From Rhizobium sp. Q54 (GTDB taxonomy: Bacteria; Pseudomonadota; Alphaproteobacteria; UBA828): DNA of 64,000 nucleotides. The notes below the pieces were generated by a model. The model searched no databases and was not told the DNA's origin. It saw only the letters and a program-made list of their open reading frames with translations. The DNA lies in the NCBI GenBank assembly GCA_945892755.1, contig CAMDDO010000004.1, positions 3,099-67,098 on the forward strand. Reading direction: 5' to 3'. A program made the position numbers and the translations under genes. Shown piece by piece: positions 2,989 through 24,079 of the stretch (position 1 is the first letter of the stretch; the number at the start of each line of letters is the position of its first letter).

Positions 2989-3052
2989 GGGTGCAAGCGC
3001 CACCGTCGAGCCCTTTGCGCTCGCGCACGGTTGCAGGCAAGCTGACAAATCA

Positions 3053-4021: not shown

Positions 4022-5190
4022 CTGAATTCGGTCAGGCGCGTCGCGCCGATTTCGGCTTCGAGGAACGCCTCGTATTTCTGAACCACGGCTCGTTCGGCGC
4101 GACGCCGAACATCGTATTGGCGGCGCAAGCCGAGTGGCGCGCGCGGCTCGAGCGCAACCCGCCGCAATTCATGCGCGGTGTGTTGCCCAAGGCGCTCGAT
4201 GACTCACGCGCGGCGCTCGCGGCCTATGTTGGTGCGCGGACTGAGGACATCGGCTTCGTCGACAACGCGACCGCCGGCTGCAACGCGGTCTTGCGCTCGC
4301 TCGCGCTCGAGCCGGGCGATGAGGTGCTCTCGACCAGCCATGTCTATAACGCGGTCAGGAACGCGATTCGTTATGTCTGCCGCCGCGCGGGCGCGCGCTA
4401 TGTCGAGGCCGCGCTCGCGTTCGATCGACCGCGTGTCGACGATGTGGTGGCGGCGTTGACCGAGCGCATGGGCGCCAAGACGCGCCTCGTGGTGGTCGAT
4501 CACATCGCTTCCGATTCGGCGCTGATCTTTCCGCTCGCGCGGATTGCCTCGCTTTGCCGCGAGCGCGGCGTCAGGCTTTTGATCGACGGCGCGCATGGGC
4601 CCGGCCATGTGCCGCTCGCGCTCGACGACCTGGGCGCCGATTATTATGCCGGCAATTGCCATAAATGGCTTTGCGCGCCGAAGGGCGCGGCGTTCCTCTG
4701 GGTGCGGCGCGACCGCCAGATCGGCGTGCACCCGCCGATCGTCTCGCATTTCATGGATCAGGGCTTCGCCCCCGAATTCGGCTGGCAGGGCACGCGCGAC
4801 CCGACCGCCTGGCTCTGTGTGAAAGACGTGCTCGACTGGCGCGCGGGTCTCGGCGAGGCGGCGCTGCGTGATTATTGCGGCGCGCTATTGGGCCGTGCCG
4901 TTGGCACGCTGGAAGCCGCGTGGAACGTCGGCGCGCTGACGCCGAAGGACGCGCGCGCCTTCATGGCGTCGCTGCCCGTGCCGGGCGCTCCACCCGCCAG
5001 CCATGCGTTGGCCGAGAAATTACGCACCGCGCTGCTCGACCATGATCATCTGGAAACGCAAATCAAGGCGGTCGATGGCGTGCTGTTCATCCGCATCACC
5101 GCGTTCGTCTACAATTCGGACGAGGACTATGCGCGCCTCGCCAAGGCGCTGCCCAAGCGGCTGCGTGACATCGGCTCAGACCCGGCCTAG
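4018..5190 (+). CDS. class-V-fold PLP-dependent aminotransferase (isopenicillin-N-epimerase/cysteine-desulfurase-like)
   Basis: NCHKW PLP-lysine motif, fold-type I layout. The ATG at 4018 overlaps the stop of the upstream gene. Confidence 0.7.
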   Translation: MTEFGQARRADFGFEERLVFLNHGSFGATPNIVLAAQAEWRARLERNPPQFMRGVLPKALDDSRAALAAYVGARTEDIGFVDNATAGCNAVLRSLALEPGDEVLSTSHVYNAVRNAIRYVCRRAGARYVEAALAFDRPRVDDVVAALTERMGAKTRLVVVDHIASDSALIFPLARIASLCRERGVRLLIDGAHGPGHVPLALDDLGADYYAGNCHKWLCAPKGAAFLWVRRDRQIGVHPPIVSHFMDQGFAPEFGWQGTRDPTAWLCVKDVLDWRAGLGEAALRDYCGALLGRAVGTLEAAWNVGALTPKDARAFMASLPVPGAPPASHALAEKLRTALLDHDHLETQIKAVDGVLFIRITAFVYNSDEDYARLAKALPKRLRDIGSDPA

Positions 5191-5640
5191 CGCATCGAGC
5201 GCGCCTTGCAAAATGTAGACCGCCGCGAGCTTGTCGACCACTTCGGCGCGGCGCTTGCGCGATAAATCGGCCTCCAACATGGTGCGCGTCACCGCCATGG
5301 TCGAGAGCCGCTCGTCCCAAAAGACGATCGGCAGGTCGATCGCTTTGCCAAGGTCGGTCGCGAACTGACGCACCGATTGGCAGCGCGGCCCCTCGGAGCC
5401 GTCCATGTTGAGCGGCAGGCCGATCACGAGGCCGCCGACGCCATCATCGCTCACCAAGCGCGCCAGCGTGCCGAGGTCCTTTTTTAGCTTTGTCCGCGCG
5501 ATGGTCTGGCGCCCGCTCGCCACCACGCGCCGTTCGTCGGAAATCGCGATGCCGATGGTCTTGCTGCCGACATCGAGCCCAAGCAGACGGGCCTTTGGCC
5601 CGAGCGCGGCGGCGAAGTCCTGTATGTTGCGGAGCAGCAT
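5176..5640 (-). CDS. ruvX: Holliday-junction resolvase-like YqgF/RuvX
   Basis: [15 protein letters not shown] and [14 protein letters not shown] motifs. An internal Met at 5640 gives the typical ~154 aa length; the longest ORF extends to 5679. Confidence 0.8.
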
Positions 5641-5746
5641 GACGGGTGTTAGCTTCGCGTCCTTCGCGCCGGTCGGCAAGGCAATCCAACCATTTGGTCG
5701 TCATGCCCCGGCGAATCAGGCGGCTTCATCGGTTGGGAACGACAGC

Positions 5747-6034
5747 ATGGCGATCGATCGGGCGACGGTGCTCAAGATCGCGCGTTTGGCGCGCATCGAG
5801 GTCAGGCCCGAGGAGTGCGACCATTTGGCGAAGGAAATCTCCGGTATCCTCGCCTGGGTCGAGCAGCTTGGCGAGGTCGATACCCGCAACGTCGAGCCGA
5901 TGACCAGCGTGGTGGCGATGGAATTGCCGCGCCGCGCCGACGAGGTGACCGACGGCAATATCAGGGACGCGATCTTGGCCAATGCGCCCGAGGTTGAAGG
6001 CGGATTTTTCGTGGTGCCCAAGGTGGTCGAATAG
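5747..6034 (+). CDS. gatC: Asp/Glu-tRNA amidotransferase subunit C
   Basis: 95-aa protein with the ARLARI..EE..L..IL.WV..L motif, immediately upstream of gatA. Confidence 0.85.
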
Positions 6035-7518
6035 TGGCCAAGCTCACCGATCTGACATTGAAGGCCGCGCGCGAGGGGCTTGCCGCGCGGAACTTCTCCG
6101 CGCGCGAACTCGCGGAGGCGCACATCAAGGCGTGCGAGGCGGCGCGGCCCTTGAACGCCTATATGGCCGAGACCTTCGATCAAGCGCGCGCCATGGCCGA
6201 TGGCTCCGATCGGCGGCTCAAGGCGGGCGAGGGCGGGCTGCTCGAAGGCATTCCGCTCGCGATCAAGGATTTGTTCTGCACCAAGGGCGTGCTCTCGACC
6301 TCAAGCTCGAAAATCCTGAAAGGCTTCAAGCCGCCCTATGAATCGACGGTCACCGCGAAATTGTGGCAGGCCGGCGCGGTGATGGTCGGCAAGACCGGCA
6401 TGGATGAATTCGCCATGGGCTCGTCCAACATGACGAGCTGCTATGGCGCGGTGACCAATCCCTGGCGCCGCAAGGGCGATAACAAGCCCTTGGTGCCGGG
6501 CGGCTCGTCGGGCGGCTCGGCCGCCGCGGTCGCGGCGCGCACCTGCCTCGGCGCGACCGGCACCGATACCGGCGGCTCGATCCGCCAACCGGCGGCGTTT
6601 TGCGGTTTGGTTGGGTTGAAGCCGACCTATGGCCGCTGTTCGCGCTGGGGCATCATCGCCTTCGCCTCCTCGCTCGATCAGGCCGGGCCGCTCGCGCGCG
6701 ATGTCCACGATACCGCGCTCCTGATGCGCGCCATGGCGGGCTATGATCCGAAGGATTCAACCTCGGTCGATCGTCCCGTGCCCGATTACGCCGCGGCCCT
6801 GAACGGCAGGGTGAAGGGCTTGCGCATCGGCGTGCCCAAGGAATATCGCGTCGATGGCATGCCGGCTGAGATCGAGGCGCTCTGGCAAAAGGGCATTGAA
6901 TGGTTCAAGGCGGCGGGCGCCGAGATCGTCGACATTACCTTGCCGCACACCAAATACGCGCTGCCGACCTATTACGTCATCGCGCCGGCCGAATGTTCGT
7001 CGAACCTCGCGCGCTATGATGGCGTGCGCTACGGCCTGCGCGAGAAGGGCGCTGATTTGGCCGAGCTCTATAGCAAGACGCGCGCCGCCGGCTTCGGCCC
7101 CGAAGTGCGCCGGCGTATTCTGATCGGCACCTATGTGCTCTCGGCCGGCTATTACGACGCTTATTATCTGAAGGCCCAGCAGGTACGCACGCGCATCGCC
7201 GACGATTTTCGCACCGGCTTCGAGCGCGTCGATCTGGTCTTGACGCCGACCGCGCCGTCGCCGGCCTTCGGGATCGGCGAGATGATGGACGATCCGGTCG
7301 CGATGTATTTGAACGATGTCTTCACCGTGCCGGCCTCGCTCGCCGGTCTGCCCGCGATCTCGGTGCCGGCGGGCCTGAGCGCGGACGGTCTGCCGCTCGG
7401 TCTGCAATTGATCGGCCGGCCGTTCGACGAGGAAACCGTGCTGCGTGCCGCCGGCTTCATGGAAGAGGCCGCCGCGTTCAAAGCGGAGCCCGCCTGGCTC
7501 GGCGAGGGCCGCGCATGA
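6034..7518 (+). CDS. gatA: Asp/Glu-tRNA amidotransferase subunit A (amidase)
   Basis: Amidase signature [27 protein letters not shown] start overlaps the gatC stop. Confidence 0.95.
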
Positions 7519-8969
7519 GCGCGATCGTCGAAGGCCGCACCGGGCCGTTCGAAATGGTCATCGGGCTTGAGGTGCATGCCCAGGTGATCTCGAAGGCGAA
7601 GCTGTTCTCCGGCGCCTCGACCGCGTTCGGCGCGGAGCCCAACACGCAGGTCTCGTTCATCGATGCCGGCATGCCGGGCATGCTGCCGGTGATCAACGGC
7701 CTATGCGTCGAACAGGCGGTCAAGACGGGTCTGGCGCTCAACGCCCAAATCAATTTGGTCTCGGTCTTCGATCGCAAGAATTATTTTTATCCCGACCTGC
7801 CGCTCGGCTATCAGATCTCGCAATTCACCAAACCGATCGTGGGCAAGGGCATCGTCACCATCGACCTGCCCGATGGCTCGACCAAGGATATCGGCATCAC
7901 GCGGCTTCACCTCGAAATGGATGCCGGCAAGAGCATTCACGACATTCGCCCCGATGCCACGCACGTCGATCTCAATCGCGCGGGCGTCGCGCTGATGGAA
8001 ATCGTCTCCGAGCCCGATATCCGCACGCCCGAGGAAGCCGGCGCCTATGTGAAAAAACTGCGCTCGCTGCTCCGTTATATCGATACGTGCGACGGCAATA
8101 TGGACGAAGGCTCGATGCGCTGCGATGTCAACGTCTCGGTGCGCCGGCCGGGCGAGGGCTTCGGCACGCGCTGCGAGATCAAGAACGTCAATTCGGTGCG
8201 TTTCGTCATGCGCGCGATCGAATATGAGGCAGCGCGTCAGGTCGGCATCATCGAGGCGGGCGGCACGATCGATCAGGAAACCCGCCTGTTCGATTCGCAG
8301 AAGGGCGAGACGCGCCCCATGCGCTCAAAGGAAGAGGCGCACGACTATCGCTATTTCCCCGATCCCGATCTCTTGCCGCTGAGACTCGATCCCGCCTGGG
8401 TGGCGCGCATCAAGGCGGCGTTGCCTGAGCTCCCCGATGCGCGGAAAGAGCGCTTCGTGCGCGATTTCGGGCTCTCGCCCTATGACGCGAGCGTGCTCGT
8501 CGCCGAGAAGGAGAACGCCGCTTTTTTCGAAACCGTCGCCAAGGGCCGCGATGGCAAGATGGCGGCCAATTGGGTGATGACGGAATTGTTCGGCGCGCTC
8601 AACAAGAAGGGGCTCGATGTCACGCGCTCGCCGGTCAAGGCCGAGGCGCTTGGCGGCCTGATCGACCGCATCAAGGACAACACGATCTCGGGCCGCATCG
8701 CCAAGGAGGTTTTCGAGATCATGGTCGAGACCGGGCGAGATGCCGATGCAATCATCGAAGAGAAGGGCCTGCGCCAGGTGACGGACACCGGCGCGATCGA
8801 GGCCGAGGTGGACAAGGTGATCGCCGCCAACGCCGACAAGGTCGCGCAAATCCGCGCCGGCAAGGAGGCGCTCAAAGGCTGGTTCGTCGGCCAGGTGATG
8901 AAGGCGACCCAAGGCAAGGCCAACCCCGCCGCGGTCAATCAGATTCTCGATAAAAAGCTGAAGGGCTGA
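7515..8969 (+). CDS. gatB: Asp/Glu-tRNA amidotransferase subunit B
   Basis: [22 protein letters not shown] and C-terminal GatB/YqeY domain. ATGA overlap with gatA. Confidence 0.95.
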
Positions 8970-9001
8970 ACCGCGCCTCCCGAGCGAGCCGGGCCTTGCC
9001 A

Positions 9002-9018
9002 GCGCGCGGCCCGCGCGC
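9002..9018 (+). terminator. GC-rich hairpin after gatB (7-bp stem GCGCGCG / CGCGCGC, 3-nt loop), no U-tract
   Basis: Inverted repeat read directly in the gatB-GST intergenic region. Confidence 0.3.
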
Positions 9019-9047
9019 CATCCTGCCCGCCTCCTTAAGGGCAAGCC

Positions 9048-9740
9048 ATGATCGATCTCTATTATTGGCCGACGCCGAATGGCTGGAAGATCTCGATCGC
9101 GCTGGAGGAGCTCGGCCTCGCCTATGAAGTGAAGCCGATCAACATCGCGAAGGGCGAGCAATTCGCGCCCGATTTTCTGAAGATCGCGCCCAACAACCGC
9201 ATCCCCGCGATCGTCGACCATGACGGCCCGCGCGGCGCGCCTTTCGCGCTGTTCGAATCGGGCGCGGTCCTCCTCTATCTCGGCGAGAAGGTCGGAAAAC
9301 TCATCGGCACCACGCCGCGTGCGCGCTATGAGGTGCTGGTCTGGCTGATGTGGCAGATGGGCGGCGTCGGCCCGATGTTCGGCCAAGCCAATCATTTTTC
9401 GCGCTATGCGCCGCAAAAAGTGCCCTATGCGATCGAACGCTATGAGAACGAGGCGCGCCGTCTGACCGGCGTGCTCGATAAACGTCTCGCCGGGCGCGAT
9501 TTTGTCGCGGGCGATTATTCGGTGGCCGATATCGCGATCTTCGGCTGGATGCGGGATTATGCCAGCGGCCGTTCCTTGGCCGATTTCGCCAATGCGCGGC
9601 GCTGGTTCGATGCGCTTTCGGCGCGCCCGGCGGTGCAGCGCGGCGTGGCGCTTGGCGCCGAGCTCCGCGTCGCGCCCGCTCAACTCGATCAGGCGGCGCG
9701 CGACACGCTATTCGGCAAGCGTCAATTGGAACGTCGATAG
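9048..9740 (+). CDS. glutathione S-transferase (Nu-class, YfcG/YghU-like)
   Basis: N-terminal thioredoxin-like fold YxxPTPNGxKISI, NNRIPAI, ESGAILxYL motifs. Confidence 0.85.
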   Translation: MIDLYYWPTPNGWKISIALEELGLAYEVKPINIAKGEQFAPDFLKIAPNNRIPAIVDHDGPRGAPFALFESGAVLLYLGEKVGKLIGTTPRARYEVLVWLMWQMGGVGPMFGQANHFSRYAPQKVPYAIERYENEARRLTGVLDKRLAGRDFVAGDYSVADIAIFGWMRDYASGRSLADFANARRWFDALSARPAVQRGVALGAELRVAPAQLDQAARDTLFGKRQLERR

Positions 9741-9774
9741 AAATTTCGATCTCATAAACAAAGGGAGGTCTCTC

Positions 9775-10482
9775 ATGGCCAAGCAAGCGAAGAAGAGAAA
9801 CGTCGCCGCCAAATCGAAGACCAAGGCGAAGGCAAAAACCAAATCGAAGGCGCAAGCGAAGCAGCCGAAGGTTCACCTCTATGGCGTCTGGCTGTCGCAG
9901 CCGACCCAGCGCGTCGCGCTCATGCTCAATATGGCGAAGGTGCCGCACGCCTATCACCATGTCGATCTGTTCCAGGGCGAGCACAAGAAGCCTGACTATT
10001 TGAAGATCAACCGGTTCGGCCAGGTGCCGGCGCTGGTCTGCAAGGGCGAGGCGATGTGCCAATCGAACCGCATTCTGGAATTCCTCGCGGCGAGCACCGG
10101 CAAGTTCGACGGCGGTTCTCCCAAGGACAAGCGGGCGGTGCGCGAATGGTTGAATTGGTGCGACGATCGGCTGGTCAACGTCAATCGCGCACGGGCGCAA
10201 ATTCGTTTCCAGAAGGGTGGACCCGAAATCGTGGCGTTCTGCCAGGCCAATGCCAGGGCGGCGCTCGATGTGCTGGAGGCGCATATGAAGGGCCGCAAAT
10301 TCATCGTCGGCGCCAAGCCCACCATCGCCGATATCGCGGCCTATGCGCAGATCGCGCTGTTGGATGAGGCGCAGCTCGATATCAAGACCTGGCCGAGCAT
10401 CGCGGAATGGTGCGCGCGCGTGGCGAAACTGCCCGGCTCAAGCCATCCCTATGAGGCGCTGCCGAAGGAATCGCGCGCGTGA
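9775..10482 (+). CDS. glutathione S-transferase with 30-aa Lys/Ala-rich N-terminal tail
   Basis: MAKQAKKRNVAAKSKTKAKAKTKSKAQAKQPK tail, then a GST fold (VPALV, ES..IL.FL). AAAGGGAGG RBS precedes the ATG at 9775. Confidence 0.8.
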   Translation: MAKQAKKRNVAAKSKTKAKAKTKSKAQAKQPKVHLYGVWLSQPTQRVALMLNMAKVPHAYHHVDLFQGEHKKPDYLKINRFGQVPALVCKGEAMCQSNRILEFLAASTGKFDGGSPKDKRAVREWLNWCDDRLVNVNRARAQIRFQKGGPEIVAFCQANARAALDVLEAHMKGRKFIVGAKPTIADIAAYAQIALLDEAQLDIKTWPSIAEWCARVAKLPGSSHPYEALPKESRA

Positions 10483-11099
10483 TCGAGCTTTACACCTGGG
10501 GCACGCCGAATGGCCGCAAGGTCTCCATCATGTTGGAGGAGACCGGGCTGGAATATGGCGTGCACAGCGTGAATATCGGAACCGGCGAGCAGCACAGGCC
10601 TGATTTTCTGGCGCTCAGCCCGAACAATCGTATCCCCGCGATCGTCGATCCCGAAGGGCCGGATGGCGCGCCGATCAGTCTCTTTGAATCGGGCGCCATC
10701 CTGGTCTATCTCGCCAACAAGACCGGCAAGTTCTTGCCCGGCGATCCAGTGCGCCATTATGACGTCATGCAATGGCTGATGTTCCAGATGGGCAATGTCG
10801 GGCCGATGTTCGGCCAGCTCCATCATTTCAAGCGCAACGCGCCCGAGCCTTTGCCCTATCCGCTTGAGCGCTATACGCGCGAGGCGAAGCGGCTCTATGG
10901 CGTGATGAACCAGCGTCTGTCCGAGAGCGCCTATCTTGCTGGCGCTGATTACAGCATCGCCGATATCGCGACCTACCCCTGGGTCGCGCGTCATGATTGG
11001 CAGGAGATCGAGCTCAAGGACTATCCGGCCGTCAAGCGCTGGTACGATGAGATCGGCGCGCGACCCGCAGTGCAGCGGGGCTACAAGGTGCCGGCCTAA
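10479..11099 (+). CDS. glutathione S-transferase (Nu-class), paralog of 9048..9740
   Basis: Near-colinear with the first GST (TPNGRKVSI, NNRIPAIVD, ESGAILVYL, MFGQ). GTG start overlaps the upstream stop. Confidence 0.85.
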   Translation: MIELYTWGTPNGRKVSIMLEETGLEYGVHSVNIGTGEQHRPDFLALSPNNRIPAIVDPEGPDGAPISLFESGAILVYLANKTGKFLPGDPVRHYDVMQWLMFQMGNVGPMFGQLHHFKRNAPEPLPYPLERYTREAKRLYGVMNQRLSESAYLAGADYSIADIATYPWVARHDWQEIELKDYPAVKRWYDEIGARPAVQRGYKVPA

Positions 11100-11112
11100 C
11101 GCGAGGAGGACC

Positions 11113-11604
11113 GTGTCGGCGCTCGACAATCCTTCGGTCCAACGAGTCCAGGCGGCGCTTGAAGCCGCCGGCTCCGCCGCCCGCGTGATCGCCCTGGTCG
11201 ATATTGCGCGCAGCGCCGAAGACGCCGCACGCGCGATCGGCACTGCGCTCGGCAGCATCGTCAAATCGCTTGTGTTCATGGTCGATGGGCAGGCGGTGAT
11301 GGCGCTGATCGCGGGTGACCGGCGTTGCGATATCGCGGCCTTGCCGGCCGCGCTTGGCCTTACGGGCAAGGCCAAACGCGCGGATGCCGAGATCGTGCGC
11401 GCCGCGACCGGTTTTGCCATCGGGGGTGTCGCGCCGGTTGGCCACGTGAACCAGCTGCCCATCGCGATCGATTCCAGCCTCCGGCGTTTTGATGCGATCT
11501 ATGCCGCGGCCGGTCATCCGCATTGCGTGTTTCCGACCAGTGTTGATGAATTGAGACGCCTGACCGGCGGGCGCGAGGTCGTGGGCATTGGCGTCGAGGC
11601 CTGA
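11113..11604 (+). CDS. YbaK/ProX-type aminoacyl-tRNA deacylase domain protein
   Basis: KSLVF...GxxxxAxxxGxRRxD and GGVAPxGH motifs typical of YbaK/EbsC. GAGGAGGA RBS precedes the GTG at 11113. Confidence 0.65.
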   Translation: MSALDNPSVQRVQAALEAAGSAARVIALVDIARSAEDAARAIGTALGSIVKSLVFMVDGQAVMALIAGDRRCDIAALPAALGLTGKAKRADAEIVRAATGFAIGGVAPVGHVNQLPIAIDSSLRRFDAIYAAAGHPHCVFPTSVDELRRLTGGREVVGIGVEA

Positions 11605-11804
11605 GTGGCGACTTGGTCGCGTGCGCCTTCGCGGCGACCGGGTCTTCACGCGGCGTTTAGGCTCTTGGCCTAGAATCCATGGGGTCCGCGCCATTCGCCG
11701 GTCGCGATTGACAGGGCTGGCGGCGGCGGATAGGAAGGCCGGCGCAGGCCGCTAGCGGCCGAAAGGAAGCGTTCCACGCCAGCGACGTGGGCCGAGGCGA
11801 GCAT

Positions 11805-11898
11805 GGACGGGTGGCCGAGCGGCTGAAGGCGGCGGTTTGCTAAACCGTTATACGGGCCTAAACCTGTATCGAGGGTTCGAATCCCTCCCCGTCCGCCA
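11805..11898 (+). tRNA. tRNA-Ser(GCU): tRNA-Ser (anticodon GCU), class II with long variable arm
   Basis: Acceptor GGACGGG/CCCGTCC, D-arm GCCGAGCGGCTGAAGGC, anticodon stem-loop GCGGT-TTGCTAA-ACCGT (anticodon GCT), long variable arm, T-arm GAGGG-TTCGAAT-CCCTC, discriminator G plus encoded CCA. Confidence 0.85.
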
Positions 11899-11964
11899 TC
11901 TCGGGTCTGTCCGGCCCGGAGACATAGGGAACGGAACGTACCCAAGACATGGGCGACAACCCGA

Positions 11965-12574
11965 CTATCCGGTCGCGCTTCGGCGCGCGGCCGCGTGGTA
12001 ATCACGATGACTTGGCGGTCGCGCGCGGCCGTCGACCCAATCCCAGAACTGCGAAGCGTCGCGGGCGAACGGCAACAAGGGCTGAAGCACCTTGCGGGCG
12101 TTCGGCAGTGCTATGGCTGTGCGTCGGTCAAGGTCGGGCCATAATGTCAGAACATCGCCGGACGCGACCAGGCCGCGGCACCTTGGGGCGCCGCATCGGC
12201 ACGCCATCGGCTCGATCAAATTGAGGTGGCCGTACTCGCAGGTGACCTGCTCGTCGGCCGCGATGTCGCGCACGGCGATCTCGAAGTCGCCGCCGACAGC
12301 AAGCATCGCCGGCTCACAGCTGTGATTGACGTAACGGCCATGGTCCCAGCACAAGATCACGCGACCTTCCGCGTCGATGTATGAATACTGCTCGAGGACC
12401 GGCTGATAGGGTGGCGGGAACGCCGCCACTTCCTTGGGCGTAAAAATCATGTCGAGGCGGCACAGCACCCAGAGGATCGTGCCGCGTGGGATCGGCTCGC
12501 GGGCAAAAACACCGTAGCCGATCTCTTCGCTGATGAAGCGCAATTCGGTGGCTGGATGGATCATCGCTCGCTCA
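11965..12574 (-). CDS. SET-domain protein lysine methyltransferase (bacterial)
   Basis: GYGVFA (GxG), RYVNHSCEPA (NHSC), EQVTCEYG (ELxxxY), and a Cys-rich post-SET CRCGAPRCRG. Convergent with the tRNA, 67 bp away. Confidence 0.75.
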
Positions 12575-12817
12575 TATGGTTCCCAGGGTGACAAGGTGGT
12601 CCCGATGCACCGCCTCCATGCGGGCGCGCGGCTCCGGCGCGTGCCGCAACAACAACTCGAACTGACGCCGTTGCAGCGATAGAAGCGTACACGGCATGAG
12701 GGTGCGCACGCTGGTCGTGCGTCGCACGGCGCGCAAAAGCGTGATCTCGCCAAAATGATCGCCCGCCTCAAGAACCGCGACTCGACGGCGGATGCCTTCC
12801 GCCTCGTCCCCCAACAC
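12572..12817 (-). pseudogene. C-terminal half of a cyclic-nucleotide-binding (CAP/Crp-type) domain, likely a remnant
   Basis: GDHFGEITLL..RTTSVRTL...LLSL.RRQFELLL matches the second half of a cNMP-binding domain. The N-terminal beta-strands are absent. It is in frame with the ALDH TGA stop (12854-12856), 36 nt upstream. Confidence 0.45.
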
Positions 12818-12853
12818 CTCGACCGCGCCGCCGACCCGCGGAGGGCAGTGCCC

Positions 12854-14278
12854 TCAGTGCTTGACCATGACGTGGCGGACGACGGTGTAGTCCTCGAGCG
12901 CGTACATCGAGAGGTCCTTGCCATAGCCCGAGTTCTTGATCCCGCCATGCGGCATCTCGTTGATCAGCATGAAGTGGCAATTGACCCAGGTGCAGCCATA
13001 TTGAAGCCGGGCCGCGGTCTGCATCGCCTTGCCGACATCCTTGGTCCAAACCGACGAGGCGAGGCCGTAATCCGAATCATTAGCCCAGCCGATGACCTCC
13101 TCGACGTCCTTGAAGCGCGTGACCGACACGACCGGACCGAACACCTCGCGACGAACGATCTCGTCCTCCTGGCGGGCGCCGGCGATCACGGTCGGCTCAT
13201 AAAAGAAGCCCTTGCCCGAGCTCGGGTGGCCGCCGGCCACGACGCTCATGTGCTTCTGCCCGGCGGCGCGCTCGACGAAGCTCGCGACGCGACTGCGCTG
13301 GCGCGCGCTGATCAAGGAGCCGATCTCGTTCTCGGCGTCCTCCGCCTTGTCGTAGCGGATGGTCTTTACGGCGCTCGCGAGGTCGGCGACGAAATTGTCG
13401 TGGATCTTGTTCGCGACATAGACCCGGCAGGCCGCCGTGCAGTCCTGCCCGGCATTGTAATAGCCAAAGGTCCGGATGCCCTCGACCACGGATTCGAGGT
13501 CGACATCGTCGAACACGATGACCGGCGCCTTGCCGCCGAGCTCGAGATGCGTGCGTTTCAAATTGCGCGAGGCGGCGGCCAGCACCTTCTGCCCGGTCGA
13601 GACATCGCCGGTGAGCGAGACCATGCGCACGCGCGGGTGGCCAACCAGCGCCGCGCCGACCGAGTCGCCACGCCCGACCACCACATTGAGCACGCCTTCG
13701 GGCAGAATGCCGGCCGCGAGCGCGGCGAATTTCAGCGTGGTCAGCGGCGTCTGCTCGGATGGCTTGAGCACCACCGTATTACCAGCGGCAAGCGCCGGCG
13801 CGAGCTTCCACGCAGCCATCATGAGCGGATAATTCCACGGCGCGATCGAACCCACGACGCCGACCGGATCGCGCCTAATCATCGAGGTGTGTCCGGCGAG
13901 ATACTCGCCCGCCGCGCTGCCCGATTGAACGCGCGCCGCGCCAGCGAAGAAGCGATAGCAATCGACCACCGCCGGAATCTCGTCGGCCAAGACCTTGTGA
14001 TAGGGCTTGCCGCAATTTTGCGCCTCGAGCCGGGCGAAGGCCTCGGCATCGGCTTCGATCGCAGCGGCGATTTGGAAGAGCTTTGATGAGCGCTCGGCTG
14101 GCGTGGTGCGCGACCAGCGCGCGAAGGCGTGTTCGGCGGCCGCGACCGCTTCGTCGACCTGCTCGGGGCTCGCCTCCGGCAGCTTGACAATGGTCTGGCC
14201 GGTCGCCGGGTTGAGGATGATCTCTTCGCCCTCGGTTCCGGCGACGAATTTGCCGCCGATCAACATGGCATTTTGCAT
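12854..14278 (-). CDS. NAD(P)-dependent aldehyde dehydrogenase
   Basis: ALDH catalytic motifs ELGGKAP and the GQDCTA Cys site. Start [11 protein letters not shown] is preceded by an AAGGGAGA RBS. Confidence 0.9.
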
Positions 14279-14306
14279 GGCTAGTCTCCCTTCATGGGGC
14301 GGGTGC

Positions 14307-15143
14307 TCAACGGCTCCCGCCGGCAATGTGTTCGCCGCGGCGCGTCAAATAATAGGCGCCGAGAATGGGCAGGGACGTGACCGCGATGATGAAGACCGCG
14401 ACCACGTTGGTGACCGGACGTTGGCGCGGTCTGACCAGCTCGTTCAGCATCCAGATCGGCAGCGTGCTTTGCTGGCCGGCGGTAAAGGTCGTGACGATGA
14501 CCTCGTCGAAGGAGAGCGCGAAGGCGAGCATGCCGCCGGCCAGGAGCGCCGTCGCGATGTTCGGCAGAAGAACGTGGCGGAAGGTCTGGAAGCCGTCCGC
14601 GCCGAGGTCCATCGAGGCCTCGAGCATCGAACCCGAGGTGCGTCGAAAACGCGCGATCACGTTGTTGTAGACGACGACGACGCAGAACGTCGCGTGACCG
14701 AGCACGATGGTCCAGAAGCTGAACGGAATCTCAGCCAGGCTGAACGCCGAACGCAGCGAGATGCCCGTGATGATGCCGGGCAGCGCGATCGGCAAGACGA
14801 GCAGCAGCGAGACCGATTCGCGGCCGAAAAAATTGAAGCGCCAGAGCGCGGCCGAGGCGAGTGTACCCAAGACCAACGCGACCACGGTCGAGATCGCCGC
14901 GACCTTGAGCGAGAGCCCGACCGCCTGCCAGATGTCGGGCCGTTCCCAGACCGCGGCGAACCACTTGGCGGTCAGGCCCGGCGGCGGGAACTGGTACGAC
15001 TTCTCCTCGGTGGTGAAGGCGTAGAGCAGAATGAGCAGGAGCGGGATGTGCAGGAAGGCGAGTCCGGCGATGACCGCCAGCCTCAGCGTCAACGCCGCGG
15101 GCTTCTTTTCCGCTGCCGCGCGCGCCTTGCGTCTAGAGCGCAT
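14307..15143 (-). CDS. ABC transporter permease (PotC/PotI-like)
   Basis: 6-TM permease with an EAA-like loop; part of a potABCD-like operon. Confidence 0.85.
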
Positions 15144-16077
15144 CGAAGGCTCCGAGCTTTTTCGCGCCGAACAAATAGATCGCCATGATCACGATCGGCA
15201 CGACGGTGAACGCCGCGGCGAGCGGGATGTTTCCGGCGGTGCCCTGGTGGATGAAGACCGCCTGGCCGATGAAGATGCGCGACTGACCGATGATCTGCGG
15301 AATGATGTAGTCGCCGAGCGTGAGCGAGAAAGTGAAGATCGAACCCGCGACAACGCCAGGGAAGGCAAGCGGCAGGATCACCTTGCGGAAGGTCTGGCGC
15401 GGTTTGGCGCCAAGATCGGCCGAGGCCTCCAGCAACGAGGCAGGCACGCGCTCGAGCGCGGCCTGAATCGGCAGTATCATGAACGGCAGCCAGATATAGA
15501 CGAAGACGATGAAGGTGCCGATATAGCTGATCGAAAGCGACGGTCCGCCGATCACCGGAATTGCCAGAATGCCGTCGAGCAGCCAGGCGAGCCCAAGTTG
15601 ATCGAAGACCCAGGTGACGATGCCTTCCTTGGCGAGGATCAGCTTCCAGGCATAGACCCGCACCAAATAGCTCGACCATAGCGGCAGCATGACGAGCAAA
15701 TAGAGCACGGCCTTGGTGCGCCCGGTCGCGTGCAACGCCATGTAGCGCGCGATCGGAAACGCGATGGCGGCGGCGGCGATGGTGACGGCGGCGGCCATCA
15801 TCACGGTGCGGCCGATGATGTCGAGATTGGCCGGGTGCGCGAGCTCGCCGTAGGTGCGCAACGTGAACTCGCGATTGACCACGCCGGAAAACTCGTCAAT
15901 CGAGAAGAAGCTTTGCAGCAGGAGCGCGATCAACGAGCCCAGATAGACCACGCCGAGCCAGAGGATTGGCGGCCCGAGCAACGCGAGCAGCAGAAGGTGC
16001 GGGTGGCGATAGAGCACGCCCGAGAGCCGGCGCAGGGGCGAGGTGCGCGGCATGGGCTCGAGCGCCAGCGCAGTCAC
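15133..16077 (-). CDS. ABC transporter permease (PotB/PotH-like)
   Basis: EAAxDLGA EAA loop, polyamine-type permease. Confidence 0.85.
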
Positions 16078-17108
16078 GGCGGCGCCTCCGAATCGGGCCC
16101 AAGTGGCGTCATGTCATCGAGCCGCCAAGCGAGGCGCACCCGACCATCGGCGCTCGCCGCCATGGGCTCGGCCTCGTTCTGACGCTGCGCGATGAGGACC
16201 AAGCCGTCGGTCAGTCTGATTTCATAGCGCGTATGGCTGCCGTGATACTGGGCCGCCACGACTTGGCCGTCGGTCATGGCCCAGCCGGTCTCCGGCATGG
16301 CGCCGCCCGCGGCAAAGCGAATCTTCTCCGGCCTGAGCGCGAAAGTGCCAGCTCGGCCGGCCAGGCGCTGGGCGCTAGCCGGCTCGATGATGTTCGCGTG
16401 GCCGACGAAATCGGCCACGAAGCGCGTGGCGGGGCGGGCATAGATGGTTTCGGGTGTATCGACCTGGGCGATGCGCCCCTTGTTGAACACGGCAACCCGA
16501 TCGCTCATCGAGAGCGCCTCGCCCTGGTCGTGCGTGACAAAGACGAAGGTGATGCCAAGCGAGCGTTGCAAGGTCTTCAACTCGCTCTGCATTTCCTCGC
16601 GCAGCTTAAGGTCAAGCGCGCCGAGCGGCTCGTCCAGCAAGAGCACCTTGGGTTGATTGATCAGCGCGCGCGCGAGCGCGACACGCTGGCGTTGGCCGCC
16701 CGAGAGCTGGCTCGGCCGGCGGGTCTCGAGGCCTTCGAGGCGGACCAGGTTGAGCATTTCGGCGCCGCGGCCATGGCGTTCCCGCCGTGACACGCGCCGC
16801 ACCATCAGCCCGTAGCAGACATTGTCGATGACGTTCATGTGCGGGAACAGCGCGTAGTCTTGGAACACGGTATTGACGTCGCGCTCGAACGGCGGCAGGC
16901 GGTCCGCCTGAACGCCGAAGATTTCGATATGGCCCGCGCTCGGGCGCTCGAAGCCGGCGATTAGCCTAAGACAGGTGGTTTTGCCCGAACCTGACGGGCC
17001 GAGCATGGCGAAGAATTCACCCGCGCGTACCTCGAGGCTGACGTCATCGACCGCGCGCACCTCGCCGAAATGACGCGAGACACGCTCGAAGCGAACGGCG
17101 ATATCCAC
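16074..17108 (-). CDS. ABC transporter ATP-binding protein (PotA/PotG-like)
   Basis: Walker [10 protein letters not shown], signature [15 protein letters not shown], Walker B LLLDEP, C-terminal TOBE domain. Confidence 0.9.
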
Positions 17109-17192
17109 GGCGCGATCCGCGTCACGCTCCCGGCACGAAACCGCGCCGCCGCCCGCTGCGGGCGACGACGCGGCTTCAAGCCGATCGCGATC

Positions 17193-18359
17193 TCAGCGAC
17201 CGCCGAGAACCGCGATGTAGTCGGTCACCCAGCGATAATAGGGCACGCAGGTGCCCTGGCTGGCGCATTTGGAAACCGGCGTGCGCCAGAAGTGGATGCG
17301 CTCGAAATTGTCGAGACCGTTGGTCTTGCAGCCCTCGTCGGTCAGCAGCGCATTGCCCTTACAGGCGTCGAGCACGGCGGGGACCGAGCCAAACCAGGCC
17401 GCAAGGTCGCCCTGGAGCTTCGGGTTGATCGAGTGCTCGAGCCATAGATAGGCGCAGTTCGGATGCGGCGCGTCGGCGTGCATCATGGTGGTATCGGCCC
17501 ACCCCGTGGCGCCCTCTTCGGGGACCGTGCTGCCGACCGGCTTCTTCTGCGAAGCGAGGATGTTGACCTGGAATGGCCAGGACGACGACGCGACCACGCC
17601 TTCGTTGGTGAAATCGTCGATCTGCACGAACGCGTCGTGCCAATAGCGCCCGACGATCTGGCGCTGCTGGCGCAGCAGCGTGAGCGCCGCCTTGTATTGA
17701 TCCTCGTTCAACTCATAGGGGTCCTTGATGCCGAGCTCGGGCTTGTGCTTCATCAGGTACATCGCCGCGTCGGCGATATAGATCGGGCCGTCGAAGGCCT
17801 GCACGCGGCCTTTGTTGGGCTTGCCGTCGGGCAGCGTGGTTTCCTCGAAGACGACCGACCAGCTCTTGGGTGGCTCCTTGAAAATGTTGGTGTTGTACAT
17901 CAGCACGTTCGAGCCCCACTGATAGGGCACGCCATAATGCACGCCGTCGACCGTGTGCCACGGCGCCTTCTGCAAGCGCGGATCCACCTTCTTCCAGCTC
18001 GGGATCAGGTCGACGTTGACGGGCTGCACGCGCTTGCCCGAGATCAGGCGGAGGCTGGCGTCGCCCGAGGCAGTAACCAGGTCGAAGCCGCCTTCGTTCA
18101 TGAGCGCGACCATTTCGTCGGACGTGCCCGCTGTCTTCACGTTGACCTTGCAACTCGTCTTCTTCTCGAAGTCGGTCACCCAGTCGAAATTCTTGTCGGT
18201 CTCGCCGCGCTCGAGATAGCCGGGCCACGCGACGATATCGACCGCGCCTTCGCCGGCGCCAATTTTCTTGACCATATCAGCGGCGTCTGAGGGGCTGGTC
18301 GACGAGACGGCGATGAGGGCCGTAGCGGCCAGCACACCGAACACAGTGCTCCGGAGCAT
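17193..18359 (-). CDS. periplasmic polyamine-type (PotD/PotF family) substrate-binding protein
   Basis: Signal peptide and PotD/PotF-like fold, first gene of the transporter operon. Confidence 0.85.
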   Translation of the reverse strand: MLRSTVFGVLAATALIAVSSTSPSDAADMVKKIGAGEGAVDIVAWPGYLERGETDKNFDWVTDFEKKTSCKVNVKTAGTSDEMVALMNEGGFDLVTASGDASLRLISGKRVQPVNVDLIPSWKKVDPRLQKAPWHTVDGVHYGVPYQWGSNVLMYNTNIFKEPPKSWSVVFEETTLPDGKPNKGRVQAFDGPIYIADAAMYLMKHKPELGIKDPYELNEDQYKAALTLLRQQRQIVGRYWHDAFVQIDDFTNEGVVASSSWPFQVNILASQKKPVGSTVPEEGATGWADTTMMHADAPHPNCAYLWLEHSINPKLQGDLAAWFGSVPAVLDACKGNALLTDEGCKTNGLDNFERIHFWRTPVSKCASQGTCVPYYRWVTDYIAVLGGR

Positions 18360-18467
18360 GAGCGTCCTCCCAATGGTTGTTTGTGGCGCGGCGCGCTGCG
18401 GTCGCGCGCCACTGGGTAAATCCTAGAGAAGCCCGGCTCACTTCGCCATTTCAAAAATCAGAATGGT

Positions 18468-18488
18468 AAATTCGGAAATACCGAATTT
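18468..18488. promoter_or_regulatory. AT-rich palindrome AAATTCGG-N5-CCGAATTT overlapping the LysR stop, upstream of the transporter operon
   Basis: Perfect 8-bp inverted repeat inside an unusually AT-rich stretch. On the minus strand it is followed by a TTTTT run, so it could instead be the lysR terminator. Confidence 0.3.
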
Positions 18489-19413
18489 ATCCTTCGGCCG
18501 AACCTATGTGCCGGGGCTGTGGCCGATGTTCGCGCGCGACCTCCAGGAAATTGGCCGCCGCCAGGGTCAGCGGCGCACCCCGCCGCCATGACAGACCGAC
18601 ATCGAGCGTCGGCAATCTATCGGCGAGTGAGCGGATCTCGAGCCGATCGCCCTCGAGCGACCACGGCCGAAACGCGAGATCGGGCAGGATCGTGACGCCG
18701 GCGCCAGTCGCCACCAGGCTGCGCACCGCCTCGACCGAGCTGGTGCGAAGCGCGATCGGCGGCCTGATGCCCGCGGCGCGTAAATAGGCGGCCGAGGACT
18801 GCTCGAGCTCGTCAACGGCAAGAACGATCAGCGGCTCCTCGCTCAAATCGTGCAGCGGCACGCTGTCGCGCGCCAGCAAGGCATGGCTCGCTGGCAACCA
18901 AAGGCGATAGGACGAAGTGACCAAAACCTCGGATTCGAGCGCCATCTGGTTTGCGAGGTTCGAGACGATGAGAGCCGCGATATCGAGTTCGCCATTGACC
19001 AGGAGATGTTCGACATAGTCGCGGCTGTCCTCGACCACCGTGACCCTTACCTCGGGATAGGCGCGTCGATAACGGGCCAGCAAGTCGGCCAGATAATAGC
19101 CCGCGACCAGGCTCGTCACGCCCAGATTGACCACGCCCTCGACCGGAATGTCGTCGACATGCAGCGCGCGTTCGGCACTGCCGACCGTCGCCAGGATATT
19201 CTCGGCGTGGCGCAAGAACTGGTGGCCCTTGTGAGTGAGCGTGAGGCCCTTTGCCGAGCGATAAAAGAGCGTCGCGCGCAGATGTTCTTGCAGCGCCTTG
19301 AGGGCTTCGGCCACCGTCGAGGGCGAGGCACCGATATCGTGCGCCGCACGGGTCAACGATCCGCGCTCGGCGACCGCGACGAAATAGCGTACTTGTCTTA
19401 GCGAAAGCGCCAT
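18487..19413 (-). CDS. LysR-family transcriptional regulator
   Basis: N-terminal wHTH (LRQVRYFVAVAERGSLTRAA) plus LysR substrate-binding domain. Confidence 0.9.
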   Translation of the reverse strand: MALSLRQVRYFVAVAERGSLTRAAHDIGASPSTVAEALKALQEHLRATLFYRSAKGLTLTHKGHQFLRHAENILATVGSAERALHVDDIPVEGVVNLGVTSLVAGYYLADLLARYRRAYPEVRVTVVEDSRDYVEHLLVNGELDIAALIVSNLANQMALESEVLVTSSYRLWLPASHALLARDSVPLHDLSEEPLIVLAVDELEQSSAAYLRAAGIRPPIALRTSSVEAVRSLVATGAGVTILPDLAFRPWSLEGDRLEIRSLADRLPTLDVGLSWRRGAPLTLAAANFLEVAREHRPQPRHIGSAEG

Positions 19414-19504
19414 CGAACCGCCTCGACCGATCGTCGATCGGCCTCATCGTGGCGGCGCTTCGCGGCGCGGTGCAGTCGCGAAGAGTCGCGCTCACACCGG
19501 CTGT

Positions 19505-19828
19505 TCACAACACGGAACTGTAATCCAAGGGCGAGACTGCTCTGATCGCTTCCCGCCGCTTGTAGCGCTCGACCAGGTTGGAAACCTCGACCACCGAAAG
19601 CGTCAAGAGAAACAGGCGATGTTCCGGCTCCTTCATGGCGTCGATCGGAAACTTGTCGAGATGGGCGACGATCTCTTCCATACGCGGGAACACCGCCTCA
19701 TAGAATGCGCGGACCTCATCCATCGTGCTGGCCTCGCGCTTCTCGGTGCGCTGGCGTTCGCGCTCCAACGACCAGTCGAGGAAAGGCTCGAGGTCGCGAA
19801 ACGGCGCCGGCAATGCATGATCGCTCAT
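19505..19828 (-). CDS. hypothetical 107-aa protein translationally coupled to the Rieske oxygenase
   Basis: ATGA overlap with the oxygenase stop. No recognisable motif. Confidence 0.5.
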   Translation of the reverse strand: MSDHALPAPFRDLEPFLDWSLERERQRTEKREASTMDEVRAFYEAVFPRMEEIVAHLDKFPIDAMKEPEHRLFLLTLSVVEVSNLVERYKRREAIRAVSPLDYSSVL

Positions 19829-21069
19829 CGCGATGCCTCAATCTGCGGAGCCGGTTTGGCGTTCCGGTAGAAGCCCACATGGTCTTCCATAACCTTGTGG
19901 AAATAGCGGATCATGATTTCCTCGTCGCCGAATTGCAGATGCGTCTTGGCCCGCGAGGCCAAGCCTCTATAGAGCGCTTCATGGGCGATTGAATCTTCCT
20001 GTTGCACGTCGCGGATCAGGCACTTGAAGAATTCCTGCGAAATCCGCCGCCCGGCCTTCATCGCCGTCGGAAAATAATAGCGGATCTCCCAAATCGTCCG
20101 ATCGACCGCGAGCGGCCAGAAATTGTAGGTCGCGAAACCGTCTTCGCTTGGACCGTGGAACAGGATGATGACCATGTTGGGGAACAGCACGTAGAAGTCG
20201 AACTCGCCGACGAGCTGCTTGATGCGCAAGCCCTCGGGGCCACGGTCGATCTTGCCGAGCAAGGTCTCAAGCGACGACAGTTTGTATTCGGGTACGAACT
20301 CGCATGACCACAGCGTGTGACGCTCGTAGAGCCTTACGTCCAAGAGCCTGGTATGCTTTTTCTCGTTCAGCAGAAAGGTGTGGCCGATCAAAAGCGGATG
20401 CTGGAACGGCAGGTGATAGACCTCGTTTTGTGCGTCGAGTGCGATCTTCCAGTTGGTGCGTTCTTCGACCTTGTACGTCTGCAACAACGCCATCTCGTTG
20501 AACGGGCAACCCTCCAGCTGATCGGCGACGCCGCCAAGATAGTCACGCAAGCTCTGAGTCGGTTTCGGATCGAGATAAACGAAAATGAAGCCGCCCCAGA
20601 CATCGCTATTGACCGGCGTCAGGCCGTGTTTCGTTTTGTCGATTCCGAAGAAACTCTCCTCGTCGGGCACGCCGACAAGCTCGCCCCTATCGTTGTACTG
20701 CCAATTGTGGAAGGGACAGAACAAGCCAACCGAACATTGGCCGCTTTCCTGCGGGACGACCAAATTTCCCCGGTGCGAACAGACATTGTGGAACACACGG
20801 ATCACATTGTCCTTGCCGCGAATGACCAGCAGAGAGGCCTTGCACACCGCCAGATCGCGCACGAAGAAGCTGCCCGGTTTCGGCACGTCGTCGATTCGGC
20901 AGAGATTGACCCAGGTGCGGCGGAAGACCCGGTCGCGCTCGAGCTCGAAATATTCCGGTGAAATACAAGGCTCGGCCGGGACGGGGCCCTTGCCCAGATC
21001 GGGGTACTTATCGGCCCACTGTGTATTGCGCAGCAGCGTCTTCATCGTGCACCCCTCGAAAAAGGCCAA
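19825..21069 (-). CDS. Rieske [2Fe-2S] non-heme iron oxygenase alpha subunit
   Basis: Rieske motif CSHRG...CPFHNW and a mononuclear iron site N-E-VYH-LPFQH in the catalytic domain. Confidence 0.85.
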   Translation of the reverse strand: MAFFEGCTMKTLLRNTQWADKYPDLGKGPVPAEPCISPEYFELERDRVFRRTWVNLCRIDDVPKPGSFFVRDLAVCKASLLVIRGKDNVIRVFHNVCSHRGNLVVPQESGQCSVGLFCPFHNWQYNDRGELVGVPDEESFFGIDKTKHGLTPVNSDVWGGFIFVYLDPKPTQSLRDYLGGVADQLEGCPFNEMALLQTYKVEERTNWKIALDAQNEVYHLPFQHPLLIGHTFLLNEKKHTRLLDVRLYERHTLWSCEFVPEYKLSSLETLLGKIDRGPEGLRIKQLVGEFDFYVLFPNMVIILFHGPSEDGFATYNFWPLAVDRTIWEIRYYFPTAMKAGRRISQEFFKCLIRDVQQEDSIAHEALYRGLASRAKTHLQFGDEEIMIRYFHKVMEDHVGFYRNAKPAPQIEASR

Positions 21070-21195
21070 TCGGAGAAGCCTGTTGGGCGGAAATCATAGG
21101 TTTTGCCGGGCCCTGACGCCAGTGTGCTCGTGCCGCCGACGCGACCTAGACCGGGCTCCGTGTTCGTTTTCTGAACATTGCGCTTGACTAGCCTC

Positions 21196-21210
21196 GTTCA
21201 CTTCGTGAAC
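21196..21210. promoter_or_regulatory. dyad GTTCAC-TTC-GTGAAC containing a LysR-type T-N11-A box, in the divergent intergenic region
   Basis: Perfect palindrome about 127 bp upstream of the Rieske gene start and about 230 bp upstream of the glycan cluster. A TTGACT -35-like hexamer lies at 21184-21189 in a locally AT-rich stretch. Confidence 0.35.
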
Positions 21211-21439
21211 ATGAAAAATGCTCGGGCGGACAAGGTGATGTCGGCACGCGCGCGCTCGAATAGCAGCCGGGGCCTAGGGCACCCGAACGGCGGTAGCGTG
21301 GCCAGCCGGCGCTGCAACCGCGTAAGTCTTTGACAAATCACCACTACTGACCGGTCCAGCACGCCTCGGCGCACGCCGCTTGGGCGCGGGGCCATGACAT
21401 CGCGCAGGTGACAGGACGGACGATGTCGGCGACAGCGCC

Positions 21440-24077: not shown

Positions 24078-24079
24078 GC

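Follow-up and report, generated by a model that had tools for sequence, protein, structure and literature searches.

SET-domain proteins in bacteria are often horizontally acquired effectors or regulators. The described systems closest to the locus considered here are the eukaryotic-type SET enzymes (ASH1L, SETD2, NSD1-3, MLL; PF00856), which share a GxG motif, an NHSC motif, a catalytic tyrosine and a four-cysteine zinc cluster, and two stand-alone bacterial enzymes: NUE, a secreted SET effector of Chlamydia (PMC2904774; reviewed in PMC3980110), and BurB, a small-molecule methionine S-methyltransferase that takes a free amino acid as its substrate (PMC12542666). For transport, the nearest characterised analogue is HetC of Nostoc, a peptidase-containing ATP-binding cassette (ABC) exporter whose N-terminal cyclic-nucleotide-binding (cNMP-type) domain binds ppGpp (PMC10986499). 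We analysed a stretch of 64,000 nucleotides (nt) from Rhizobium sp. Q54 (contig CAMDDO010000004.1, positions 3,099 to 67,098 of the forward strand; hereafter the window), in which a SET gene lies between a tRNA-Ser(GCU) gene and an aldehyde dehydrogenase (ALDH) gene, next to an open reading frame (ORF) of 81 amino acids (aa) that encodes part of a cNMP domain. This ORF is what is left of the 3' end of a gene for an ABC exporter of ~720-765 aa, and is not itself a functional gene. The locus as a whole is highly likely to record the decay of an operon, in which the exporter would have been lost by deletion and its stump left, together with an intact SET gene, in a variable region flanking the tRNA.

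The parent exporter has an ABC_membrane, ABC_tran and C-terminal cNMP_binding architecture, and it is the extreme end of this protein that the window retains. When the 723-aa exporter of an intact operon (L010) was used in full as a tblastn query, residues 640-720 aligned to window positions 12829-12584 with 75.6% identity (E=9e-30). The same search found the rest of the gene to be absent from the window, the other ATPase-domain matches being unrelated genes, and with no transmembrane or ATPase domain upstream of the cNMP stretch the locus does not qualify as an ABC exporter. The open frame of the remnant reaches back to the ALDH stop, for 93 codons in all, and scores 42.8 bits with Pfam cNMP_binding (cut-off 27.5, E=5e-11) from profile position 26 to 87, a span of 62 of the 89 positions. 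Homology to the exporter begins at GAVEVL, the ninth codon past the ALDH stop; the codons that precede it, GHCPPRV(G), are unlike those of 12 intact homologues, where the sequence at this point is RFY[IV][IL]VRGAVEVL. All 12 also possess the ~50 N-terminal residues of the cNMP domain, comprising the N-terminal helix and the first beta strands, that the remnant misses. At its other end the remnant meets the SET gene in a junction, 'TGA + 7 nt + ATGATCCAYCC', common to the window, the intact operons L010, L014, L016 and L019, and the exporter-less locus L102; the 7-nt spacer contains no Shine-Dalgarno sequence. The match to residues 640-720, the start at GAVEVL and a junction like that of the intact operons are together the reason for assigning the ORF to the exporter. 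Gene callers left the 81-aa ORF uncalled in all four assemblies that contain it.

The original prediction, made from the sequence of the window, had drawn attention to the tRNA, the SET gene, the 81-aa ORF and its position in frame with the ALDH stop, and all of these features proved to be correctly placed: the ALDH TGA (12854-12856) and the GTG of the ORF (12815-12817) are in frame, with exactly 36 nt between them. Its description of the ORF as the C-terminal half of a cNMP domain holds in that the domain is partial and C-terminal; the fragment covers ~70% of the Pfam model and ~60% of the full ~133-aa module, and so is not exactly half. The suggestion that the truncated domain is a genuine remnant is borne out by the exporter match. 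The accompanying idea of a former stand-alone or fused regulator must be discarded, because the fragment comes from the 3' end of an ABC exporter gene of the kind that usually shares an operon with SET genes of this subfamily.

The remnant and the SET gene differ in how well they have been preserved. We counted deviations, with leave-one-out counts for the homologues, at positions invariant in the seven closest intact homologues, and compared them by Fisher test. The remnant deviates at 7 of 40 such positions (R8G, D30A, A38T, P44R, A47T, L75P and R86H) against 11 of 242 in intact cNMP domains (p=0.0067). Three of these changes fall in the phosphate-binding cassette, at positions invariant in the 12 intact homologues: FGE is kept, PRTA has become RRTT (P44R, A47T), and D30 is replaced by alanine. 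The window SET deviates at 2 of 64 invariant positions, both changes conservative, against 12 of 446 in other SET proteins (p=0.69), and the rates for the remnant and for the window's own SET differ (p=0.026). Since the excess of deviations is found in the remnant and not in the SET protein, the remnant is drifting under relaxed constraint and the SET gene is maintained. The deletion appears to be recent relative to the divergence of these lineages, because the remnant has kept 64-73% identity with the seven intact homologues nearest to it and is free of frameshifts.

The intact counterpart of this arrangement is found elsewhere in the family. SET homologues at 66-72% identity (P0016, P0005, P0004) are encoded directly downstream of an exporter of 723-764 aa, the two genes overlapping or lying 7 nt apart. 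Our genome-context survey covered the best 80 of 517 SET loci in species-representative genomes, 21 of them at 55% SET identity or above and 59 more distant. An exporter stands immediately upstream of SET in 10 of the 21 closer loci (55-76% identity), and among the 59 distant ones it is clear in one (L036) and partial in two (L040, L090). In the reverse direction, a survey of metagenome contigs that started from the cNMP domain found an ABC ATPase domain upstream in 65 of 65 evaluable loci; an ORF lay downstream in 59 loci, and in ~24-27 of these the next ORF encodes a SET-domain protein. The association of exporter and SET is thus recurrent but facultative. The stop-start spacing in these loci suggests that both genes are co-transcribed, and their translation is probably coupled. 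We found no description of the pairing in the literature searched, and as far as that literature shows it is widespread and apparently undescribed. Like HetC, the parent exporter joins a type I ABC exporter core to a cNMP-type ligand-binding domain, which presumably gates transport. In contrast to HetC, however, its cNMP domain is C-terminal, after the ATPase, it has no C39 peptidase domain, and a SET gene usually follows it; of all this the window keeps only the last ~82 codons of the exporter. Against NCBIfam the exporter's best matches are MsbA-related, HlyB and HepA models, all below cut-off, and PADLOC returns only generic ABC-ATPase and cNMP-domain matches for it. Residues 591-718 of the L010 exporter do match the cNMP domains of Pycsar TIR effectors (PADLOC, E ~1e-10), a similarity at the level of the domain that implies no defence system.

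Loss of the exporter is not confined to the window. L102, which has the closest SET protein (81% aa identity) and shares nucleotide homology with the window in the SET gene only (78.7%), has directly upstream of SET a badly eroded piece of the cNMP domain, in which ~40 codons align at 45% identity. In L015 (76% SET identity) the remnant upstream of SET is 36 codons long (E=1e-6), and L018 shows a weak trace of 16 residues (E=0.018). In L090, a 1-kb contig, exporter residue ~270 is joined straight to residue ~680, followed by an intact SET start (68-661); this internal deletion reflects either a separate episode of decay or a chimera in the contig. In a neighbour-joining tree the window, L102 and L015 fall together and L018 lies beside a locus with an intact exporter, so that exporter-less SETs with stumps occupy at least two separate places, and further SET loci with no detectable remnant are scattered among the exporter-bearing ones. 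That the window and L102 differ so greatly in their state of decay argues for more than one exporter-loss event. Moreover, because the SET gene stays intact in several exporter-less lineages, its function evidently does not require the exporter.

These observations can be assembled into a history of the locus. An ancestral exporter of ~720-765 aa, with transmembrane, ATPase and C-terminal cNMP domains, would have stood upstream of SET. A deletion, more probably than another kind of rearrangement, would then have had one breakpoint ~20 nt past the stop of an unrelated ALDH gene and the other inside the exporter's cNMP-binding domain. The last ~82 codons of the exporter, the original stop-start junction and the entire SET gene would have survived, and ALDH would have become the new upstream neighbour. 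Since then the stump would have drifted, acquiring radical substitutions in its ligand-binding cassette, with SET still constrained. ALDH is the last gene of a putrescine-type ABC importer and ALDH cluster (its neighbours are SBP, ABC_tran and two BPD_transp_1 genes), and SET now follows it at 289 nt on the same strand. Scans of 11600-13000 for simple consensus sites found neither an independent SET promoter nor an ALDH terminator. With the two genes on one strand, 289 nt apart and with no such site found between them, read-through from the putrescine-uptake/ALDH cluster is the simplest expectation, and SET is probably transcribed in this way.

Several points weigh against this history. No relative was found with an intact exporter and SET at this tRNA-Ser site, so that the ancestral state is inferred. 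The remnant's frame is open for all of its 93 codons and its identity to intact homologues is still 64-73%, which means that either the deletion is recent or some constraint persists, for example on a leader ORF. Roughly one in two close SET homologues, and almost every distant one, has no exporter, as befits a facultative pairing. In addition, 7-12 homologues underlie the comparison of invariant positions, the neighbour-joining tree carries no support values, and the promoter and terminator scans were simple consensus scans.

Three other explanations of the ALDH-remnant-SET arrangement were considered alongside decay of an operon. The original prediction raised the possibility that readthrough of the TGA yields an occasional ALDH product with a C-terminal regulatory cNMP-binding module, and the ORF is indeed in frame with that TGA and stop-free over 93 codons. 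In-frame placement has a 1-in-3 prior, however, and origin from an exporter 3' end fully accounts for the fragment. ALDH itself is complete, matching its family profile end to end (NF010000, 803.6 bits, positions 1-474 of 475; Pfam Aldedh, positions 9-461 of 461). The first 7-8 codons past the TGA belong to the junction and are homologous to no cNMP domain; the fragment is without its N-terminal helix and first beta strands, the Pfam match starting at position 26 of 89; and its phosphate-binding cassette is mutated at the invariant P44, A47 and D30. An Rfam scan of 11500-13100 returned the tRNA alone, plus a sub-threshold antisense artefact, with no recoding element or signal. With a full-length ALDH, non-homologous junction codons, a truncated domain, a damaged cassette and a frame that is a 1-in-3 coincidence, the fusion is unsupported and we regard it as very improbable. 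It is even harder to believe that the junction is an assembly or binning artefact joining unrelated contigs. The window does come from a metagenome-assembled genome (MAG), and some related contigs are short or look error-prone (L021, L090), but the ALDH-remnant-SET junction is present at 99.99-100% identity in four contigs from four samples, with independent assemblies and assemblers, and two of these (L001, L003) run on through the tRNA into the conserved left flank.

The remaining alternative is that the remnant ORF is functional, either as a translated leader that ends 7 nt before the SET ATG and drives re-initiation, or as a small protein. The geometry of stop, 7 nt and ATG with no Shine-Dalgarno sequence is conserved both in intact operons and in the exporter-less window and L102. 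The frame is open for 93 codons in the window and for 96 in L102, where the amino-acid sequence is badly decayed, and the deletions in the window, L102 and L015 (with the weak 16-aa trace in L018) have all left the extreme 3' end of the exporter in place. Sparing of this end is nevertheless also expected without a leader, since deletions into SET would be selected against, and an open run of ~93 codons has a chance of ~8% in random DNA of 64% GC, in a stretch that began stop-free. The GTG at 12817 has no convincing ribosome-binding site in front of it, amino-acid constraint on the remnant is relaxed, and L015 no longer has the stop. A comparison of the frame across exporter-less loci, with different offsets in L018 and L090, pointed neither way. 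On balance a functional leader or small protein is improbable, and decay of the exporter gene remains our preferred account of the ORF.

The position of the locus beside a tRNA gene is a separate question. tRNA genes are common integration hotspots, and the original prediction saw in the tRNA-Ser(GCU), which is convergent with SET (3' ends 66 nt apart), a possible site of insertion. The neighbouring YbaK-like gene served to find relatives in which the flank could be compared. When three sequences are aligned, identity continues to ...GTCCGCCA at the last base of the tRNA and then vanishes. L096 and L097 (82-87% nucleotide identity) are colinear with the window over 2081-11899 and then pass into AT-rich DNA, and for L095-L098 homology ends at window position 11899-11901. 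L098 (79-83% identity) aligns to 11699-11901 and resumes at 21158-28670, with 1.1 kb of unrelated DNA in between. The flank is thus variable among relatives: homology of three lineages stops at the last tRNA base and one resumes ~9.3 kb further on, so that synteny breaks at the tRNA and ~9.3 kb of the window is strain-variable. This segment contains SET, the remnant, ALDH, four ABC-importer genes, a LysR regulator, a 107-aa ORF and a Rieske oxygenase. Beyond the AT-rich DNA, L096 has an rve transposase fragment and L095 an outer-membrane-protein (OMP) beta-barrel gene.

Should the SET gene and the remnant then be regarded as cargo of an integrative island that targeted tRNA-Ser(GCU) and is now degenerate? 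The break of synteny with three relatives at the last base of the tRNA, the different DNA found there in each lineage, including the AT-rich DNA and the transposase fragment of L096, two assemblies that break inside the tRNA, and the phyletic patchiness of the SET/exporter family would all suit such an origin, as would the tRNA neighbours of two other family members: in L019 a tRNA-Lys lies 50 nt from the SET stop, and in L005 a tRNA-Ser(GCU) lies 380 nt upstream of the exporter. Tested across the family, however, enrichment beside tRNA genes had to be rejected, since adjacency is seen at only about 3 of ~100 loci (the window, L019 and L005), which is about chance. Like tRNA-associated genomic islands and islets, the window has variable DNA that starts at a tRNA 3' end and differs between close relatives; unlike them, its segment has no integrase, flanking direct repeat or compositional signature. 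No integrase or other mobility gene is present among the genes of 11899-21157, the genes other than SET and the remnant being ordinary catabolic ones. The direct repeat of the tRNA 3' end for which the original prediction suggested a search was not found anywhere in the 64 kb beyond the tRNA itself (25-mer and 19-mer searches, up to 3 mismatches), a wider search for repeats in 11700-21500 turned up nothing but short matches at chance level, and the segment shows no GC anomaly (62-67%, as in its flanks). The comparisons are compatible with gain of DNA here as well as with loss in the relatives. We therefore consider an island origin unlikely, though with a real chance of being correct; integration at the tRNA, as originally envisaged, gains nothing from integrase content, composition or family-wide adjacency.

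Some further features of this flank may be recorded. The first ~100 nt past the tRNA-Ser in L095, L096 and L097 are strikingly AT-rich (tatttcttatataatctattgataaatatatac...) in genomes that are otherwise GC-rich. Contigs L002 and L004, independent Logan assemblies from different runs, end at the same base, 11869, inside the tRNA-Ser, which suggests assembly-graph branching from strain variation at the junction. On the other side of the tRNA the window encodes three consecutive glutathione S-transferases and then the YbaK/ProX-type aminoacyl-tRNA editing gene (9048-11604, + strand); the glutathione S-transferase array differs among relatives, with extra genes inserted in L095. L098 has an insertion of ~1.15 kb (1266-2416) between its YbaK-like gene and the tRNA-Ser, encoding an adenylate/guanylate-cyclase-like protein of 198 aa and a 74-aa ORF.

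Table 1. Coordinates of the features of the tRNA-Ser(GCU)-SET-ALDH region in the window.
Feature	Position	Strand	Basis
tRNA-Ser(GCU)	11805-11898	+	ARAGORN; Rfam tRNA 57.7 bits
Strain-variable segment, ~9.26 kb, abutting the tRNA 3' end	11899-21157	.	Alignments of relatives
Gene for predicted SET + post-SET methyltransferase, intact, 199 aa, with family-specific helical C-terminal extension	11965-12564	-	Pfam SET E=1.9e-12
Remnant stop TGA (12572-12574) and 7-nt spacer before the SET ATG	12565-12574	-	Operon-junction comparison
81-aa ORF as called mechanically, GTG start, within the remnant	12572-12817	-	ORF list
Exporter pseudogene remnant, last ~82-85 codons of the C-terminal cNMP-binding domain	12575-12835	-	tblastn; Pfam cNMP_binding
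Putative deletion junction, 7-8 codons from the ALDH stop to the first cNMP-homologous residue (GAVEVL)	12830-12853	-	
Aminobutyraldehyde dehydrogenase (ALDH) gene, complete, 474 aa	12854-14278	-	NCBIfam NF010000; Pfam Aldedh

The SET protein that survives beside the stump has every mark of an intact family member. It begins MIHP, as its homologues do, and scores 48 bits against the Pfam SET cut-off of 22.4 (E=1.9e-12) over the complete profile (positions 1-105 of 105). The GxG glycines (G16, G18), the NHSC motif (N80, H81, C83), the catalytic-motif tyrosine (Y111) and the post-SET CxCx4C zinc cluster (C122, C124, C129), completed by C83 of NHSC, are invariant in 37 homologues, and the window protein has 30 of the 30 invariant residues of the family. 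An AlphaFold model built with these 37 homologues (pLDDT 88.7, pTM 0.84) predicts the SET beta-fold, and its best Foldseek matches are ASH1L (E=1.2e-8), SETD2 and NSD, with probability 1.00 and a TM-score of ~0.5 on superposition. The family profile likewise matches the SET and post-SET regions of ASH1L at E=9e-13 (profile positions 9-136), with the post-SET cysteines in register, and then MLL, NSD and SETD2. The hallmarks of eukaryotic-type SET enzymes are therefore shared and invariant in the window family. In contrast to those enzymes, the window protein is bacterial and operon-encoded, and the family has neither AWS/pre-SET nor chromatin-reader domains, the SET domain starting at residue 1 of 199; it also bears a conserved helical C-terminal extension of ~60 aa with a conserved QPLLPF motif.

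NUE and BurB resemble the window family in being stand-alone bacterial SET-domain enzymes, but an exporter partner is a feature of neither, and the window SET has no pathogen or secretion-system context, its family being found in free-living environmental phyla. BurB (PDB 9l4t) matches the family profile only locally (positions 79-136, E=1.5e-9), more weakly than ASH1L does. By its motifs the window protein would be a SET + post-SET enzyme that transfers methyl groups from S-adenosylmethionine (SAM), probably to lysine residues of proteins, although a protein-lysine substrate is only the default assumption because the SET enzyme BurB methylates a free amino acid. No NCBIfam model and no PADLOC (anti-phage defence) model matches the window protein, and nothing points to the host-directed effector role that had been mentioned for bacterial SET proteins.

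The family comprises 1467 matches in a protein collection clustered at 90%, and 120 clusters (50% identity) at E<=1e-30, nearly all of 190-220 aa with the SET domain from residue 1. It occupies 517 loci among 185,579 species-representative genomes, in Alpha-, Gamma- and Deltaproteobacteria, Myxococcota, Bacteroidota, Planctomycetota, Verrucomicrobiota, Acidimicrobiia and others. The number of clusters and of genomes with matches makes the family widespread. Its distribution is phyletically patchy, as the idea of horizontal acquisition would lead one to expect; an alphaproteobacterial and a Humidesulfovibrio SET protein, for example, are 66% identical. At 45 of the 80 genome loci the SET gene is accompanied by a tandem second paralogue (for example 182 aa at L005 6594-7142, and most of L036-L094), and SET-SET fusion proteins of 374-395 aa exist (P0306, P0310); the tandem SETs may act as a pair. 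The window carries one SET only, with no tandem paralogue. Clustering of the ORFs around distant SET homologues revealed no conserved neighbour except the tandem SET paralogue, in an analysis limited by spurious antisense ORFs in GC-rich DNA.

At least three SET architectures, unrelated to one another, are encountered behind the exporters: the ~200-aa family described here, a ~170-aa SET that is 26-30% identical to it, and ATP-grasp + SET fusions. The fusions (472-485 aa; L121, L131, L132, L134, L135) consist of an ATP-grasp domain (Dala_Dala_lig_C) with C-terminal SET and post-SET regions, and their ORFs start 4-26 nt past the exporter stop. Non-SET genes also occur at this position, namely a radical SAM enzyme of the lysine-2,3-aminomutase type (L143, L170; ~185 nt past the stop), an AlaDh/PNT-family protein (L176) and DUF3326 (L178). 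Fusions of the exporter itself to SET were absent from the 120 top matches and the 150 best representatives of a SET-only search. A single ORF in L021 (71-2116) joins a cNMP domain to SET with the cNMP end frameshifted; we rejected it as probably an indel error in a long-read MAG, the nearest SETs (92-94% identity) being stand-alone. Elsewhere in the window, at 57317-60409 (+ strand), a 1030-aa ORF has an N-terminal Sulfotransfer_3 domain (E=4e-22) fused to an ABC_membrane + ABC_tran exporter core, another instance in this genome of an exporter linked to a modifying enzyme.

It is tempting to view exporter and SET as a functional two-gene system, in which a cNMP-gated exporter would be served by a dedicated SET enzyme whose target would be either the cargo or the transporter; we hold this to be doubtful and decidedly unlikely as it stands. 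The three SET architectures and the lysine-2,3-aminomutase neighbours hint at a small molecule or peptide cargo derived from lysine or an amine, and not at a histone-like protein. If the two-gene system were real, the window would show its enzyme uncoupled from export, behind a putrescine-catabolism cluster.

Decay of the exporter gene has several implications for this locus and for its family. The half-domain ORF beside SET is explained as the scar of a deletion, its annotation as a pseudogene fragment is warranted, and the idea of a readthrough fusion can be dropped. The locus also marks the 3' end of tRNA-Ser(GCU) as a recombination hot spot in this alphaproteobacterial lineage. The locus itself is ordinary decay, and its value is as a pointer to the pairing of exporter and SET. 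Repeated loss of the exporter with retention of SET indicates that the enzyme does something for which the exporter is not needed. The functions of SET proteins in free-living bacteria are largely unknown, and the tight, recurrent pairing with a ligand-gated ABC exporter provides a testable context for a widespread family.

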